A stretch of 64,000 nucleotides of DNA, taken from positions 9,430 to 73,429 of the forward strand of contig DBDW01000008.1 in NCBI GenBank assembly GCA_002293825.1, given 5' to 3'. Both the position numbers and the translations under genes were made by a program. The notes under the pieces were generated by a model. That model had not been told where the DNA came from. It ran no database searches and was given only the letters and a program-made list of their open reading frames with translations. Of this stretch, positions 1 to 41,154 are shown piece after piece (position 1 is the stretch's first letter; each line of letters begins with the position of its first letter). The stretch is from Candidatus Magasanikbacteria bacterium UBA922. GTDB taxonomy: Bacteria; Patescibacteriota; Patescibacteriia; Magasanikbacterales; UBA922.

Positions 1-2167
1 CTACATCGCGACACCCTATAAGCTGAAACCTTTTATCGAACAACAAATCAATGCTCAGTACCCCTATGCACATATCGAAGAAATAACTGATTACAATATC
101 TTCACCGAACATAGCTCGATTGTGGGTGCGTACCTCAAAGCAAAAGATGCTGCAGCGCTCCCTTTCAAAACATACAAAAAAATGGATTCAGATCCCTTAT
201 CAGGTATTCTAAACACCATTGCACGTATTCATGAATCTGAAAGTTCCGCTGCAATCCAATTCGTTATCCGTCCTGCGCATAAAAAATGGAGGCGAGAAGG
301 GGTGCGTATCGTACGCGAGGTGCGCAAAGGAAAACGTTTTGAAGAAGTGATTGGAAATAAACGTGTATTTGGCGGATTCCTCAATTCATTTGGTGCTGAA
401 GCAAAGCGACAAGTACTGGATCTCAATTCAAAAGAAAAAACTAAAGAATCGTATCAGCTCTCGGCCCTCGAAGAAGAGATGCTCAAAGGAATTGAAGAAA
501 AACTTTCAAAAGGAGGGCTTGATGCTACCATACGCATCGTCTCAGCATCGGATAATCCCGAACTCGCCAGACTCAATCTCGACAATATTGTCAATGCGTT
601 TAGTCCATACAATTTATATCGCTATGGTAACTCACTCGAAGCGATTGTACCAAAAAATCCTCAAAGCATTATTCGTGCGTTCATCTATCGATCATTTCAT
701 GAAAAAAGACACAGTATATTCAATACTGAAGAAATGGCAGGATTATGGCATCTCCCTCTTCATTCTACAGAAGCGCCTAATATCAAATGGCTCCTCGCAC
801 GCAAAGCACCTCCTCCTCCCAATCTCCCTTCAGCAGGTATCGATCTCGGTAGAGTTCTCTATCGCGGACAAGAATATCCTGTAAAAATGAAAGATGAGGA
901 TCGACGTCGACATCTCTATGTAATTGGTAAATCAGGAAGTGGAAAATCTGTCTTTATCGAAAATCTCGCCGTACAAGACGTAATCAATGGAAAAGGACTT
1001 GCGGTAATTGACCCACACGGAGATTTTGCAGAATACGTACTCGAACATATTCCAAAAGAACGCGCTGATGATGTCATCATCTTCAACCCTTCTGATTTCG
1101 AACGTCCAATTGGGCTCAACATGCTTGAAGCAAAGAGTGAAGATGAAAAAGACTTTGCCGTGCAAGAAATGATTGCCATTTTCTACAAGCTCTTTCCACC
1201 TGAGATGATCGGACCCATGTTCGAACACAACATGCGAAACGTGATGCTGACACTCATGGCAGATCTCGAGAATCCAGGAACTATTATCGACATCCCCCGC
1301 ATGTTTACCGACGATGCATACGTAAAAAAATATTTGGTAAAACTAAAAGATCCGGTAGTCAGAGCATTCTGGGAAAAAGAAATGGCAAAGACAAGCGACT
1401 TCCATAAATCAGAGATGCTTGGATATCTGATCTCAAAAGTGGGTCGATTCGTCGAAAATGAAATGATGCGAAACATCATGGGTCAACAGAAATCAGGATT
1501 TGATTTCCGAGATATCATGGATAATCAAAAAATTCTTATCGTGAATCTTGCAAAAGGAAAAACAGGAGAAGTAAATGCAAAACTAATCGGTCTCATCATT
1601 GTAGCAAAACTTCAGATGGCTGCACTCGGGCGTGCTGATCTACCTGAAGATGAACGAAAAGATTTTTATCTCTATATCGATGAGTTCCAAAACTTTATCA
1701 CCGACTCAATCGCGACCATTCTCTCTGAAGCTCGAAAATATCGCCTGGATCTCATTATCGCTCACCAATACCTCGGACAATTGACTGATGATAAAGGAAA
1801 ATCTGATATCAAAGATGCAGTACTCGGTAATGCGGGTACCATGGCTGCCTTCCGTATTGGCCCTGAAGATTCCGAAATATTAGCAAAAGAATTTGCGCCT
1901 GTATTCGGCCCGTATGACCTCATGAATGTAGAAAAATTCACTGCAAATATCAAACTTCTCATAGACAACGAACCAACAAAACCATTCAACATGGCAACCT
2001 ATCCTCCCACCAGAGGAAACAAAGATCTTGGCAATGCCATACGAGAGCTCTCACGTCTCAAATATGGACGCGATCGACGAATCGTAGAAACCGAGATACT
2101 CGAACGTACCAAGCTGGGAGAAAGTAATGAACACAGCAAAACAGACATGATTGAGGCAAGTCTCTAA
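1..2167 (+). CDS. VirD4/TraG/TraD-like type IV coupling protein family P-loop ATPase. It is 5'-partial: the frame is open back to nt 2.
   Basis: Walker A VIGKSGSGKS and Walker B YIDEFQNF. The C-terminal IIAHQYLGQL motif is typical of the TrwB/VirD4 (TraG-D_C) family. A paralog of the 61102..63087 ORF. Confidence 0.7.
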   Translation, partial: YIATPYKLKPFIEQQINAQYPYAHIEEITDYNIFTEHSSIVGAYLKAKDAAALPFKTYKKMDSDPLSGILNTIARIHESESSAAIQFVIRPAHKKWRREGVRIVREVRKGKRFEEVIGNKRVFGGFLNSFGAEAKRQVLDLNSKEKTKESYQLSALEEEMLKGIEEKLSKGGLDATIRIVSASDNPELARLNLDNIVNAFSPYNLYRYGNSLEAIVPKNPQSIIRAFIYRSFHEKRHSIFNTEEMAGLWHLPLHSTEAPNIKWLLARKAPPPPNLPSAGIDLGRVLYRGQEYPVKMKDEDRRRHLYVIGKSGSGKSVFIENLAVQDVINGKGLAVIDPHGDFAEYVLEHIPKERADDVIIFNPSDFERPIGLNMLEAKSEDEKDFAVQEMIAIFYKLFPPEMIGPMFEHNMRNVMLTLMADLENPGTIIDIPRMFTDDAYVKKYLVKLKDPVVRAFWEKEMAKTSDFHKSEMLGYLISKVGRFVENEMMRNIMGQQKSGFDFRDIMDNQKILIVNLAKGKTGEVNAKLIGLIIVAKLQMAALGRADLPEDERKDFYLYIDEFQNFITDSIATILSEARKYRLDLIIAHQYLGQLTDDKGKSDIKDAVLGNAGTMAAFRIGPEDSEILAKEFAPVFGPYDLMNVEKFTANIKLLIDNEPTKPFNMATYPPTRGNKDLGNAIRELSRLKYGRDRRIVETEILERTKLGESNEHSKTDMIEASL

Positions 2168-5494: not shown

Positions 5495-6013
5495 TTAAAA
5501 AATATTTTTGTCTTCAGGTACACTTAAAATATTTTGATAAACTTTTTGATAATTTATTTCTTTATTTTTAATTTTTTTAAGTAGCAATTTACATGCTTCA
5601 ATAAAATCTTCAAAAAAATACTCAAAACAAATTATAAGACGTTTTCCTTTTTCATCCTCTAACAAAGACTTATTACATCCATGTTTCTTTTGTGAAAGGC
5701 CAATACAATTACCGGGTCGAGAACTGTGAACCATTGAACATCTCAAATTTGAATATAAATCAAATTTATGTCCTTTTTTATTATAAATATGATAGTTTTG
5801 AGGAAACAATTCTCTAATAGCCAAACGAAATCTTTTTTCTGATAATCCACTATCATCCCAATCATAAGCATCTAGACATGCCCCTAAAAATTCAATTGAT
5901 GAAGCAATGAGTATAAAACCTAGATAAGCATGCTCCGCCTCACCATTATCATTAATTGTCATTTTTTTAATTTCTTCAATCAAAGGACCTTTTATAAAAC
6001 TAGAAACTAACAT
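5495..6013 (-). CDS. hypothetical protein in an extremely AT-rich gene
   Basis: A 172-aa ORF with no recognisable domain. Local GC is far below the neighbours, and it is adjacent to a tRNA. Confidence 0.4.
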   Translation of the reverse strand: MLVSSFIKGPLIEEIKKMTINDNGEAEHAYLGFILIASSIEFLGACLDAYDWDDSGLSEKRFRLAIRELFPQNYHIYNKKGHKFDLYSNLRCSMVHSSRPGNCIGLSQKKHGCNKSLLEDEKGKRLIICFEYFFEDFIEACKLLLKKIKNKEINYQKVYQNILSVPEDKNIF

Positions 6014-6027
6014 AAAAAAACTGTCTT

Positions 6028-6058
6028 TTAAAAAACACGACCATTTGGCCGTGTTTTT
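6028..6058. terminator. hairpin terminator
   Basis: ACACGACC-attt-GGCCGTGT followed by TTTTT, with T/A runs on both sides. Confidence 0.45.
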
Positions 6059-6059
6059 G

Positions 6060-6130
6060 CTCGGGGACAGGGACTCGAACCCCGATACACAGGACCAGAA
6101 CCTGTAGTCCTACCATTAGACGATCCCCGA
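6060..6130 (-). tRNA. tRNA-Gln (anticodon CTG)
   Basis: Reverse complement TCGGGGATCGTCTAATGGTAGGACTACAGGTTCTGGTCCTGTGTATCGGGGTTCGAGTCCCTGTCCCCGAG folds as a cloverleaf. Loop TTCTGGT gives anticodon CTG. The T-loop is TTCGAGT and CCA is not encoded. Confidence 0.85.
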
Positions 6131-6385
6131 ATGTGTTATACCTGTTAACCTTCGACTGAGACATGATCTACCATATCCTGTCTTTAGACTTTTTTCACGC
6201 TTAATTGCATCCTCTTTTACCAAACAAGCTTCATAATACACAAGCTTGAGAGGTCTGCGATTTTTTGTTGATTCAACTAAACCTTTATTGTGTTTAGTTA
6301 TCCTTTCTCGCAAATCCTGCGTCCAACCTATGTATAGATTACCATCTTTTATACTTTGCAAAACATATGTATAAAACATAGCCAC
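6116..6385 (-). CDS. small GIY-YIG nuclease superfamily protein (UPF0213/YhbQ-like)
   Basis: YTYVLQSIKDGNLYIGWTQDLRERITKHN followed by YYEACLVKEDAIKREKSLK (the GIY, YIG, Arg and Glu motifs). The last five codons (HSGIV-stop) lie inside the 5' end of the tRNA-Gln. Confidence 0.7.
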   Translation of the reverse strand: MAMFYTYVLQSIKDGNLYIGWTQDLRERITKHNKGLVESTKNRRPLKLVYYEACLVKEDAIKREKSLKTGYGRSCLSRRLTGITHSGIV

Positions 6386-6562
6386 CTCCCTTTAAAACCA
6401 TTCGACCTGCCCGCATTGCTACGCAAAGCGTTGCAGGCGGGCGATCCCCGAATAGATTTGATGGATATAGTGTACCAAAATAATCAAAAAAGTCAAGAAT
6501 GGTATTGTAGACATCCACCATCATATGGTACAGTATGCACGCACAAAAAATAAATTTTCTGT

Positions 6563-7252
6563 ATGAATCTCAAGCTTGCTCTTGTTATTCTCACAAGCAC
6601 ATTTTTACTCACTGGATGCGGAGAGGTACCTACGCCGCGTCCCGACACTACGAGCACTGGCCTATCAGCCGAAGATCTCTTTGGTACTCAGCCAGCACAG
6701 AATTCAGCCGGATCAAAAAATATATCATTATCGCCCTCACAACTAACTACTACACCTTCTATGGAATTCGATGTCTCAAAACGTTATACCGCAATCCTCA
6801 ATACCAATAAAGGTAACATTGAAATCGCACTCAATTTCGGCCAAACTCCAAATACCGTAAAAAATTTTGTCGATTTATCGCGTAAAGGTTTCTATATCAA
6901 CACCATCTTTCACCGAGTGATCGAGGGATTTATGATTCAAGGGGGTGACCCCAATGGAAATGGTACTGGTGGACCAGGATACCGATTCCATGATGAGCCA
7001 TTTACCGGAGAATATACACGAGGTGCTGTAGCAATGGCGAATGCCGGACCAAACACCAACGGAAGTCAATTCTTCATCATGCATGCTGATTATCCATTAC
7101 CCAAAAATTATACAATTTTTGGTAGAGTAACCAAAGGAATGGACGTGGTCGATTCGATTGCCACCGATGAAGTACAGTATAGTCCCACAGGAGAGCTTTC
7201 ACAGCCTGTGACACCTGCAGTAGTACACAGTGTCGAGATTATCGAGTCCTAA
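6563..7252 (+). CDS. cyclophilin-type peptidyl-prolyl isomerase lipoprotein
   Basis: Lipobox LLTGCG after a signal peptide. Cyclophilin motifs FHRVIEGFMIQGGDP and GSQFFI. Confidence 0.85.
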   Translation: MNLKLALVILTSTFLLTGCGEVPTPRPDTTSTGLSAEDLFGTQPAQNSAGSKNISLSPSQLTTTPSMEFDVSKRYTAILNTNKGNIEIALNFGQTPNTVKNFVDLSRKGFYINTIFHRVIEGFMIQGGDPNGNGTGGPGYRFHDEPFTGEYTRGAVAMANAGPNTNGSQFFIMHADYPLPKNYTIFGRVTKGMDVVDSIATDEVQYSPTGELSQPVTPAVVHSVEIIES

Positions 7253-7344: not shown

Positions 7345-7848
7345 ATGCGTAATTTTAGAGACAATCGAGGTGGCGGAGGTGGTAGATTTGGGAAACGAAA
7401 TTTTGGAGGAAACCGTGGAGGATACGGTGGTGGCAATAGAGATCGCCGAGACGGTGACACTTCTAGACCTGGGATGCACAAGGCTACCTGTGCTGAATGT
7501 GGAAAGCCATGTGAAGTACCATTCCGACCTACCGGCGACCGACCGATTTTCTGTAGCGACTGTTTTGGTAAACAAGAAGGTAGAGGCAGTAGTCCACGTG
7601 AAAAAAAGTTTGATCGACCACGATTCGAAAACAAACGACCTGATTTCAGACCTGCTACTCCTGCACAAGATACCAAAGCATTCACTGACATCAAGCAACA
7701 ACTCGAACTCATGAACAATAAAATAGAAAGAATCTTGAGTCTTGTAATGCAGACGCCACCAACTACGGAATCAGCTCCCGAAAAGAAAACTGAACCTAAG
7801 ACGAAAAAAGCAAAAGCAAAGAAAACTACTGCTAAAAAGAAGAAATAG
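7345..7848 (+). CDS. RGG-rich protein with a C4 zinc ribbon (zf-trcl-like) and a basic tail
   Basis: N-terminal RGG/GGN repeats. CAECGKPCEVPFRPTGDRPIFCSDCF has the CxxCG...VPF.P..DRP..C..C layout. The C-terminus is lysine-rich. Confidence 0.5.
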   Translation: MRNFRDNRGGGGGRFGKRNFGGNRGGYGGGNRDRRDGDTSRPGMHKATCAECGKPCEVPFRPTGDRPIFCSDCFGKQEGRGSSPREKKFDRPRFENKRPDFRPATPAQDTKAFTDIKQQLELMNNKIERILSLVMQTPPTTESAPEKKTEPKTKKAKAKKTTAKKKK

Positions 7849-35971: not shown

Positions 35972-36083
35972 GTATTTAATTCTTTTGATATAGCAAATAA
36001 ATATTTCCTACTGTAGTTATTGTACGTAACTAGAGAGATATGGTCAAACAAAAACCACCCGGAAGGGTGGTTTTGCGATAGTG

Positions 36084-36154
36084 CTCGGGGACAGGGATTC
36101 GAACCCCGATAGCTGGGACCAAAACCCAGAGTCCTACCATTAGACGATCCCCGA
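36084..36154 (-). tRNA. tRNA-Gln (anticodon TTG)
   Basis: Reverse complement TCGGGGATCGTCTAATGGTAGGACTCTGGGTTTTGGTCCCAGCTATCGGGGTTCGAATCCCTGTCCCCGAG. It matches the 6060..6130 tRNA outside the anticodon arm, apart from one T-loop base. Loop TTTTGGT gives anticodon TTG. Confidence 0.85.
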
Positions 36155-36370
36155 ATGTTTAAGAATGCTCATCTTTTCTTCACGTCCATAACCGGACTTC
36201 AAAAATAATTCACGTTTATAAGCTTCTTCCCTAGAAGCATATTCTTCAGTATGAATTACTTTTAATGGCCGATACCCCTTTGTCGATCTTGTTTTTCCTG
36301 CATTATGATCTTTGATTCGTTGCACCAAGTCAGACGTACGATCCTCGAATGTTTCATTCGTCATCCCCAT
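36140..36370 (-). pseudogene. N-terminally truncated GIY-YIG-like ORF overlapping tRNA-Gln, a probable degenerate copy
   Basis: It aligns with the C-terminal half of the 6116..6385 protein (LVQRIKDHNAGK..RPLKV...EEAYKRELFLKSGYGRE) and has the same HSGIV-stop overlap. The GIY/YIG hairpin region is missing and there is an in-frame stop upstream. Confidence 0.45.
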
Positions 36371-39073: not shown

Positions 39074-39147
39074 GAGCCGACATCGGGGATCGAACCCGAG
39101 ACCTACAGTTTACGATACTGTCGCTCTACCAGCTGAGCTATGTCGGC
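39074..39147 (-). tRNA. tRNA-Thr (anticodon CGT)
   Basis: Reverse complement GCCGACATAGCTCAGCTGGTAGAGCGACAGTATCGTAAACTGTAGGTCTCGGGTTCGATCCCCGATGTCGGCT. The loop ATCGTAA gives anticodon CGT. Confidence 0.85.
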
Positions 39148-41016: not shown

Positions 41017-41083
41017 ACACTACAGAGAAGAGATAGGTGAATGCTTGTGTTTCAATGAAACATGAAACACTCTTTCATTATTG

Positions 41084-41154
41084 AGCGGGATACGAGAATC
41101 GAACTCGCTTCTCTGGCTTGGGAAGCCAGCATAATACCAGTATACTAATCCCGC
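41084..41154 (-). tRNA. tRNA-Gly (anticodon CCC)
   Basis: Reverse complement GCGGGATTAGTATACTGGTATTATGCTGGCTTCCCAAGCCAGAGAAGCGAGTTCGATTCTCGTATCCCGCT. The loop TTCCCAA gives anticodon CCC, and the discriminator is U. Confidence 0.8.

Follow-up and report, generated by a model that had tools for sequence, protein, structure and literature searches.

A GIY-YIG nuclease gene between a split tRNA stub and a rebuilt tRNA gene: a probable homing-type cassette in Patescibacteria

The stretch of DNA analysed here, the window, comprises 64,000 nucleotides of contig DBDW01000008.1 of Candidatus Magasanikbacteria bacterium UBA922. It carries two tRNA-Gln genes, each preceded on the same strand by an open reading frame (ORF) of the GIY-YIG nuclease family that ends within the tRNA. 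Comparison with related genomes suggests that these ORFs belong to a cassette that probably lives as a selfish element in the 5' parts of tRNA genes. The features of the first locus (locus 1, anticodon CTG) are as follows, in 5' to 3' order on the minus strand.

6469..6496, minus strand: promoter-like site, TTGACT, 16 nt, TG-n-TACACT; the sole sigma-70-like match in 5980..6580
6442..6451, minus strand: stub of the resident tRNA-Gln, positions 1-10, TCGGGGATCG, an exact copy of the tRNA 5' end
6406..6441, minus strand: 36-nt GC-rich quasi-palindrome CCCGCCTGCAACGCTTTGCGTAGCAATGCGGGCAGG, precisely between stub positions 10 and 11 (G10/T11)
6396..6405, minus strand: stub of the resident tRNA-Gln, positions 11-20, TCGAATGGTT, 8/10 identical to TCTAATGGTA
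6385..6390, minus strand: ribosome-binding site (Shine-Dalgarno) GGGAGG, preceding the likely start ATG at 6379
6116..6379 (open frame 6116..6385), minus strand: intact stand-alone GIY-YIG gene of type 1, 87 codons, whose final 15 nt, stop included, coincide with tRNA bases 1-15
6059..6130, minus strand: complete tRNA-Gln(CTG), directly behind the ORF (ARAGORN, 72 nt; Rfam tRNA at 6060..6130, 71 nt, 54.1 bits)
6030..6056, minus strand: terminator-like stem-loop with T-run, ACACGGCC-AAAT-GGTCGTGT-TTTTTT, judged by eye; the consensus scan made no call

The second locus (locus 2, anticodon TTG) has the following features.

36140..36370, minus strand: 5'-truncated GIY-YIG ORF, a relic of type 2, 76 codons, matching Pfam positions 20-74 only
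36338..36355, minus strand: older leader plus tRNA-Gln stub, GAAACAT + TCGAGGATCGT, positions -7..11 with one mismatch; its frame continues into the truncated ORF at codon ~21
36083..36154, minus strand: complete tRNA-Gln(TTG) (ARAGORN, 72 nt)

At locus 1, the distance from stub base 1 to base 1 of the intact tRNA is 321 nt; the insert thus adds 321 bp in the D-arm of the resident tRNA-Gln gene. In L005, a related locus (loci outside the window are given L numbers), stub positions 11-20 are 10/10 identical. The consensus scan of 5980..6580 found no promoter-like site between the ORF and the tRNA, and the site at 6469..6496 is presumably the native promoter of tRNA-Gln(CTG), now driving the stub, palindrome, ORF and tRNA.

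Both ORFs finish with CAT TCG GGG ATC GTC TAA, in which TCG to TAA are tRNA bases 1-15. This confirms what a sequence-only reading of the window had reported, namely a same-strand ORF upstream of each tRNA-Gln that ends HSGIV-stop inside the tRNA. That reading had also placed the differences between the two tRNAs in the anticodon arm and at one T-loop base. Alignment bore this out and added canonical position 44, which had been overlooked: the first 25 nt are the same in both genes, and the nine differing positions comprise three compensated anticodon-stem pairs, the first base of the anticodon, position 44 and one T-loop base. A third fragment of the junction had been noted next to a GC-rich hairpin; it is present, one base from where it had been placed (6442..6452 instead of 6443..6453, minus strand), and this copy of TTCGGGGATCG adjoins the palindrome. 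On the minus strand at 36339..36349 there is a fourth copy, which has one mismatch. At up to one mismatch, TTCGGGGATCG occurs six times in the window against 0.79 expected, and none of 100 shuffled sequences reached six. This third fragment is what the resident tRNA left as a stub; the palindrome that divides it exactly is conserved and forms part of the element.

The amino acid identity between the two ORFs is 47%; they come from different cassette lineages and did not arise by a recent duplication. The earlier description of the locus as duplicated 30 kb away was therefore misleading, as locus 2 is a decayed member of the lineage that is intact in L175. The two ORFs share one tail because the leader AAACAT and the tRNA 5' end were copied at the 3' side of the cassette. 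The shared tail (K/T-H-S-G-I-V) is thus duplicated target and not inherited, namely leader AACAT plus tRNA bases 1-15. Being target-encoded, it carries no information on protein homology.

The expected domain was found in the ORF of locus 1 (PF01541, 59.4 bits, E=4e-16; curated cut-off 22.6), which had been described as an intact GIY-YIG protein of roughly 89 amino acids; the likely start at ATG 6379 gives 87. At 36140..36370, where the C-terminal half alone had been said to survive, the match was partial (38.4 bits). The locus-2 ORF is without both tyrosines of the GIY and YIG motifs, without the palindrome and without its original start, and is 81% identical to the intact 86-aa ORF at the orthologous site of L175. 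Residues Y3, Y5, Y16, G18, R26, H30 and E50 were invariant in 68 homologs including the locus-1 protein. The GIY-YIG fold, on which the sequence-only reading had staked its identification, was returned by structure prediction: an AlphaFold2 (AF2) model of the 87-aa protein had a mean predicted local distance difference test score (pLDDT) of 94.3 and elements in the order E-E-H-E-H-H (beta-beta-alpha-beta-alpha-alpha). Foldseek matched it to the UPF0213 protein 1zg2, to Slx1 (7cq3_A; template modelling score, TM, 0.70; root-mean-square deviation, rmsd, 1.7) and weakly to I-TevI. The best sequence matches among solved structures were BH0048 (1zg2, E=1.4e-9) and EF2693 (1ywl, E=9.5e-7), both UPF0213. 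The locus-1 protein is therefore a single PF01541 domain and fits the stand-alone UPF0213/COG2827 type. PADLOC and PHROGs gave no match for it.

We used FtsX, which adjoins locus 2, to fetch the orthologous sites of relatives, which the names of the FtsX homologs suggest to be Candidatus Magasanikbacteria. FtsX is 80-98% identical within this clade, and the sites were in the following states.

L174, FtsX 84%: empty; leader ...ttgaaacat directly before TCGGGG
L176, FtsX 80%: empty; leader as in L174
L173, FtsX 87%: empty
L003-L006, FtsX 82% (measured on L005): intact type 1 cassette with the stub-palindrome-stub layout; ORF 85% identical to that of window locus 1
L175, FtsX 81%: intact type 2 cassette; 86-aa ORF; stub 1-19 plus a short palindrome CCTGCCGGCAGG
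Window locus 2, self: decayed, without a palindrome and with codon ~21 directly behind stub 1-11
L172, FtsX 98%: decayed, with an in-frame stop; codon ~45 joined to a stub-palindrome-stub stretch that reaches position 35

The same homologous site is thus filled in some relatives and empty in others, as would be expected of a free-standing homing endonuclease gene. The upstream leader of the filled L003-L006 is homologous to that of the empty alleles, and the GAAACAT at locus 2 is identical to the leader native to the empty L174 and L176. Further, the history of the element is discordant with that of the host: in this small sample, two lineages with 43-47% identity and decayed copies occur at one site. 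The ORF at the TTG locus of L005 is 85% identical to the CTG copy of the window and 43% identical to its TTG copy. The ratio of nonsynonymous to synonymous substitutions (dN/dS) was 0.13 when the CTG copy of the window was compared with the TTG copy of L005. For the same two genomes dS was 0.68 in the cassette ORF and 1.53 in FtsX, a rough comparison of 57 synonymous sites and one host gene, which suggests that the two cassettes diverged from each other more recently than their hosts did. The tRNA body 3' of position 25 tracked host relatedness and not cassette type; it is therefore the 5' part alone that is exchanged at the FtsX sites. Taken with the states above, locus 1 is evidently an intact copy under selection and locus 2 a decayed copy of another lineage.

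The orthologs of locus 1 were sought by a metagenome scan with the neighbouring cyclophilin, which gave only non-syntenic matches of 42-71% identity, one of them with a GIY-YIG gene, and no empty-site comparison. Downstream of tRNA-Gln(TTG), the window (35972..36082) resembles L173, and L172, with 98% identical FtsX, resembles L176. Since the downstream sequence differs among such close relatives, tRNA-Gln(TTG) marks a synteny breakpoint.

A search with the locus-1 protein detected 1091 homologs, almost all in Patescibacteria. In many of them the C-terminal tail is a translated tRNA 5' end, and N-terminal extensions (MRAGR.., LRAGL..) are translated palindrome. We then analysed the best 80 species-level loci, chosen by protein similarity, with ARAGORN and scripts (85 ORF copies, 230 kb). 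The stop codon of 43 of the 85 ORFs lay -39..+20 nt from the start of a same-strand tRNA, usually at +2 to +7. These occupied tRNAs made up 43 of the 73 in the 230 kb and represented 15 anticodons, with Gln the commonest (14/43). Rfam added one more tRNA, seven tmRNA genes and one 23S rRNA. Nearly all tRNA-linked copies had a stub of the cognate tRNA upstream, in many cases preceded by a TGGTATAAT-like (TATAAT-like) box. At D-arm positions 4-21 the palindrome breaks into this stub with no base gained or lost, and the stub resumes to position ~14-30 before the ATG. Thus, the proposal that a GIY-YIG element travels with or targets tRNA genes gained from the survey, and its restriction to tRNA-Gln was lost, given the 15 anticodons, tmRNA, 23S rRNA and one protein gene. 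A suggested role in tRNA duplication or conversion held in part: every insertion included a partial tRNA duplication, and one locus (L080) a whole second tRNA.

An old tRNA-Thr in L080, with the acceptor GCCGGAA/TTCCGGC, is interrupted at 21/22. The interruption encloses, between two identical palindromes, an ORF and a different, intact tRNA-Thr (GCCGGTG/CACCGGC), and therefore a cassette can bring a whole tRNA. Old 3' pieces of tRNAs remained behind the intact tRNA in L024, L077 and L084. The redundant 3' copy of tRNA-Ala in L024 (395..500) also has a different small insertion (TCCCAAAGGGATCCCTTCGGGA) in its D-loop. Tandem cassettes were found in L009, L049 and L072. Related species were occupied at the same tRNA species, as seen for Val-GAC, Ile-TAT and the tmRNA clusters.

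The seven tmRNA loci (L013, L022, L035, L040, L068, L069 and L075) have the order smpB, GIY-YIG, palindrome, tmRNA; the 5' GGG of the tmRNA is at the same time the final GGG of the palindrome in L022 and L068. In L042 (1416..1900), the GIY-YIG ORF and palindrome lie in the spacer of an rRNA operon, between tRNA-Ala(TGC) and the 5' end of 23S rRNA. Homologs outside Patescibacteria (tail ..KSYLTG) showed none of these linkages to stable-RNA genes at the surveyed loci. Nine such loci on delta-proteobacterial and Bacteroidales contigs (L033, L039, L059, L066, L067, L070, L073, L076 and L082; tail ..LKSYLTG), with no tRNA downstream, share a conserved CCTGCCC(N)GTTAAATAGCTTGAGG within 30 nt before the ORF start, immediately 5' of the ATG.

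The 36-nt palindrome occurs once in the window. Its DNA fold has a free energy of -15.6 kcal/mol (z=-3.5), and in an Rfam scan of 5900..6600 by E-value the palindrome and leader gave nothing above noise, the tRNA being the sole match. Across the surveyed loci we counted ~60 copies, 42 of which end 0-60 nt upstream of a GIY-YIG start, with arms of the form CCCGCC(T/C)GC...GC(G/A)GGC(A/G)GG. The two asymmetric arm types, together with their interiors, correspond to one another as reverse complements. Since they are equally frequent (19 forward, 19 reverse, with 18 symmetric), the element sits in either orientation. The 36-nt class showed compensatory changes in two overlapping inner stems, columns 11-14/18-21 and 16-19/23-26 (pairs seen: UA, AU and GC at 16-26; UA and CG at 17-25; AU, GC and UA at 11-21), in a small sample of nine distinct sequences. 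One T-A to C-G double change separates the window from L005. Selection acts on the ORF (dN/dS 0.13) and on the pairing of the palindrome.

Palindromes were nested in L027 and L062, and copies without an ORF lay inside redundant tRNA pieces, in the D-loop (L080), the T-loop (twice, L084) and the anticodon loop (L077). At three loci (L015 1440..1830, L169 930..1330 and L171 930..1370), the GIY-YIG ORF lies between two palindrome arms, and the element interrupts the 5' end of an NAD-dependent epimerase gene exactly within the codons for its GGAGFIGS motif; an intact start of that gene is rebuilt downstream. A target-site duplication made by a staggered cut was rejected as an account of the repeats, as the palindrome lies inside the first repeat copy and not between the copies. 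A chance overlap of ORF and tRNA was considered and dropped.

Two further tRNA genes in the window, tRNA-Thr(CGT) at 39074..39147 and tRNA-Gly(CCC) at 41083..41154, both on the minus strand, were unoccupied, with no stub, palindrome or GIY-YIG gene within 600 nt upstream. A 172-aa ORF directly 3' of tRNA-Gln(CTG) (5495..6013, minus strand) had no Pfam match. At 7345..7848 on the plus strand, a 167-aa protein with an RGG/GGN-rich N-terminal region and a CxxC...CxxC motif is overlapped by long antisense ORFs.

From these comparisons, we consider that the palindrome, the ribosome-binding site and the ORF probably constitute a homing-type selfish cassette in the 5' parts of Patescibacteria tRNA genes, which passes through a cycle of gain, decay and loss and is expressed from the tRNA promoter. 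The second copy of the leader and tRNA 5' end after the ORF means that a complete tRNA is rebuilt. The cassette evidently places it 0-7 nt after the ORF stop, or overlapping it, and leaves the resident 5' end as a dead stub. In the tRNA-Gln lineages no stop codon belongs to the ORF itself: the frame stays open up to the TAA of tRNA positions 13-15 and so acquires the ...HSGIV tail.

The proposed mechanism is as follows. One RNA containing the stub, palindrome, ORF and tRNA would be transcribed from the native tRNA promoter. RNase P would release the tRNA, and in the Gln lineages the mRNA would lose its last four codons and stop, keeping nuclease output low. The nuclease, the fold of which is closest to that of the structure-specific Slx1, would break an unoccupied cognate tRNA gene in the D-arm, or the palindrome or its cruciform. 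Recombinational repair would then copy the cassette, with the stub as the left homology arm and the tRNA as the right. Because tRNAs are so conserved, spread between distant genomes would be allowed. After fixation, the nuclease gene would decay and eventually be lost.

Several points weigh against this proposal. We infer the enzymatic activity, the cleavage site and the transfer from comparison. The rebuilt tRNA still holds the presumed target, so that self-cleavage must be avoided somehow, and the model leaves unexplained the first partial duplication when a new tRNA species is colonised. Pfam and AF2 placed in the 87-aa protein no DNA-binding module of the kind that gives I-TevI and the Seg proteins specificity for a long site. 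A homolog was found in one of 2.9 million viral contigs, which is no sign of a phage vector. The filled/empty polymorphism alone could reflect loss only, the dS comparison carries the roughness noted above, and the same-tRNA occupancy together with 60-75% protein identity across phyla would also fit a retained useful gene. As for the structure of L080, Campbell-type integration of a circular form would give it, although this is one possible route only and no circular form was seen.

A broader claim, which we put forward tentatively and with less confidence than the homing-type cassette itself, is that these loci may represent a previously unrecognised class of minimal mobile element. Such an element would consist of ~320 bp, a palindrome and a structure-selective stand-alone GIY-YIG gene. 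It would not splice, and its targets would be those structured motifs that are most conserved in essential genes: the D-, anticodon- and T-loops of tRNAs, the 5' end of tmRNA, the epimerase's Rossmann motif GGAGFIGS and the rRNA operon. It would be rendered harmless by a duplicate of the target 5' segment or by a whole replacement tRNA, would hijack the tRNA promoter and would use a few dozen target-derived bases as universal homology arms between distant Patescibacteria.

The alternative that survives best, and that we nevertheless regard as unlikely, is that the palindrome is the true mobile unit, a miniature hairpin or terminal inverted repeat (TIR) element for which the GIY-YIG protein acts in trans as the nuclease ("transposase"). 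It would insert without target duplication at stem-loop junctions of structured genes; the partial gene duplications would be by-products or rescuers, and the ORF-plus-tRNA arrangement a frequent, stable end state. It is compatible with much of the data and differs mainly in what is cut and what moves. The palindromes with no adjacent ORF in redundant tRNA pieces (L080, L084 and L077), the nesting in L027 and L062, the equal orientations (19 vs 19) and the likeness of the fold to the structure-specific nuclease Slx1 all accord with it, as does the ORF between arms in L015, L169 and L171, which recalls a TIR-bounded transposon. However, the palindrome does not bracket the ORF but is located wholly upstream of it in the window and in 42 of ~58 cases, and one copy in the 64 kb of the window makes no dispersed repeat there. 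Further, GIY-YIG enzymes are not known for strand transfer, and the abutment of ORF and tRNA within 2-7 nt is left unexplained.

Improbable, in our judgement, is that the protein is a domesticated host nuclease of tRNA operons, retained for expression or because it resolves structures that arise at heavily transcribed genes for stable RNA, with the palindrome as an RNA processing site or 5' stabiliser and no ongoing mobility. Strong purifying selection (dN/dS 0.13), high conservation across phyla and the occupation of the same tRNA species in related species would be expected of such a gene, and base-pair covariation in the palindrome would fit RNA structure too. Against this stand the empty, intact and decayed states and the two lineages at one site within a clade in which FtsX is at least 80% identical, the truncated pseudogenes (window locus 2 and L172), tandem copies and cognate tRNA debris, the cassette divergence below that of the host, and a palindrome that works in both orientations.

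A recent duplication within the genome of a GIY-YIG and tRNA-Gln unit, followed by anticodon mutation, would account for the identical 25 nt at the tRNA 5' ends and the identical HSGIV tails. We give this very little credence, as the ORFs are 47% identical, each has a closer relative elsewhere (L175, 81% to locus 2; L005, 85% to locus 1), the tail is target-encoded and the part of the tRNA 3' of position 25 agrees with the phylogeny of the host and not with cassette type. Least credible of all is a group I intron with a GIY-YIG homing endonuclease, or an integrase-borne island at a tRNA attachment (att) site: GIY-YIG genes are typical of the former and direct repeats of tRNA segments of the latter, but only the tRNA was found in the Rfam scan of 5900..6600 and the functional tRNA is contiguous, and a 321-bp insert with a single 87-aa ORF has no recombinase and repeats the tRNA 5' end, not the 3' end.

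Known systems resemble the homing-type cassette in parts. SegB of phage T4 is a free-standing GIY-YIG homing endonuclease encoded in the phage tRNA gene cluster; of the 27 bp that it recognises, 11 form a conserved tRNA stem-loop motif (T-psi-C), and it spreads with neighbouring tRNA genes (PMC2330249). As a GIY-YIG gene among tRNA genes and outside any intron, it is the closest functional precedent. SegB differs in being phage-borne and intergenic and in its size, as a much larger protein that includes a DNA-binding part; to our knowledge it has neither a palindrome nor a partial target duplication. In contrast, the cassette protein is an 87-aa catalytic domain, chromosomal, inside the 5' part of a tRNA gene and associated with the D-arm.

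The UPF0213/COG2827 proteins (BH0048, 1zg2; EF2693, 1ywl) and the Slx1 nuclease domain are the best sequence and fold matches. The former are likewise single-domain proteins of 80-100 amino acids; our searches turned up no tRNA linkage or palindrome for them, and their biological role is largely uncharacterised. Slx1 differs in that it needs Slx4 and has a RING domain.

Islands and prophages that use tyrosine integrases at tRNA or tmRNA att sites supply a replacement gene segment, so that entry into an essential, conserved RNA gene does no harm, and leave a direct tRNA repeat, which involves the 3' part of the gene; they are kilobases long. The cassette follows the same logic of a displaced part, but has no recombinase, replaces the 5' part and measures 321 bp. 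REP/RAYT systems and IS200/IS605 elements with their miniature derivatives have a GC-rich imperfect palindrome as cis element, no target-site duplication, ORF-less miniatures, HUH Y1 transposases and genome-wide dispersal. The cassette has the hairpin, but it encodes a GIY-YIG protein instead of an HUH Y1 transposase, and its palindromes are confined to the stubs and flanks of structured or conserved genes. Finally, GIY-YIG ORFs have been reported in insertions of rRNA genes of the candidate phyla radiation (CPR) that are neither group I nor group II introns, in a study (Tsurumaki et al., 2024, PMC11270868) that treats these ORFs as sparse and places them "outside the context of homing". The host group is the same and the targets are stable-RNA genes in both cases, L042 adjoining a 23S rRNA; a term search of that paper gave no mention of tRNA genes, so that it evidently does not deal with the linkage to them (PMC11270868).

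In the full-text literature, coverage of which is incomplete so that an earlier description may exist elsewhere, we found no description of a cassette of tRNA stub, palindrome, GIY-YIG gene and tRNA, and the mechanism stands a fair chance of being new. If the reading of a homing-type cassette is true, it would add a third way for a gene of a homing-type nuclease to reside inside an essential gene, namely by rebuilding that gene beside itself, besides splicing (introns and inteins) and intergenic residence (phage seg and mob genes). A brake on expression would be predicted because RNase P would remove the stop codon of the mRNA, and a candidate substrate for UPF0213/COG2827 proteins would be the D-arm DNA of tRNA genes together with a defined 36-nt palindrome. 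For annotation, the ORFs that run into tRNAs in Patescibacteria genomes are real and not artefacts. The cassette would further explain the abundance of small genes annotated as "GIY-YIG nuclease family protein" in Patescibacteria, the tRNA debris and GC-rich palindromes beside their tRNA genes, and the behaviour of tRNA loci as synteny breakpoints.

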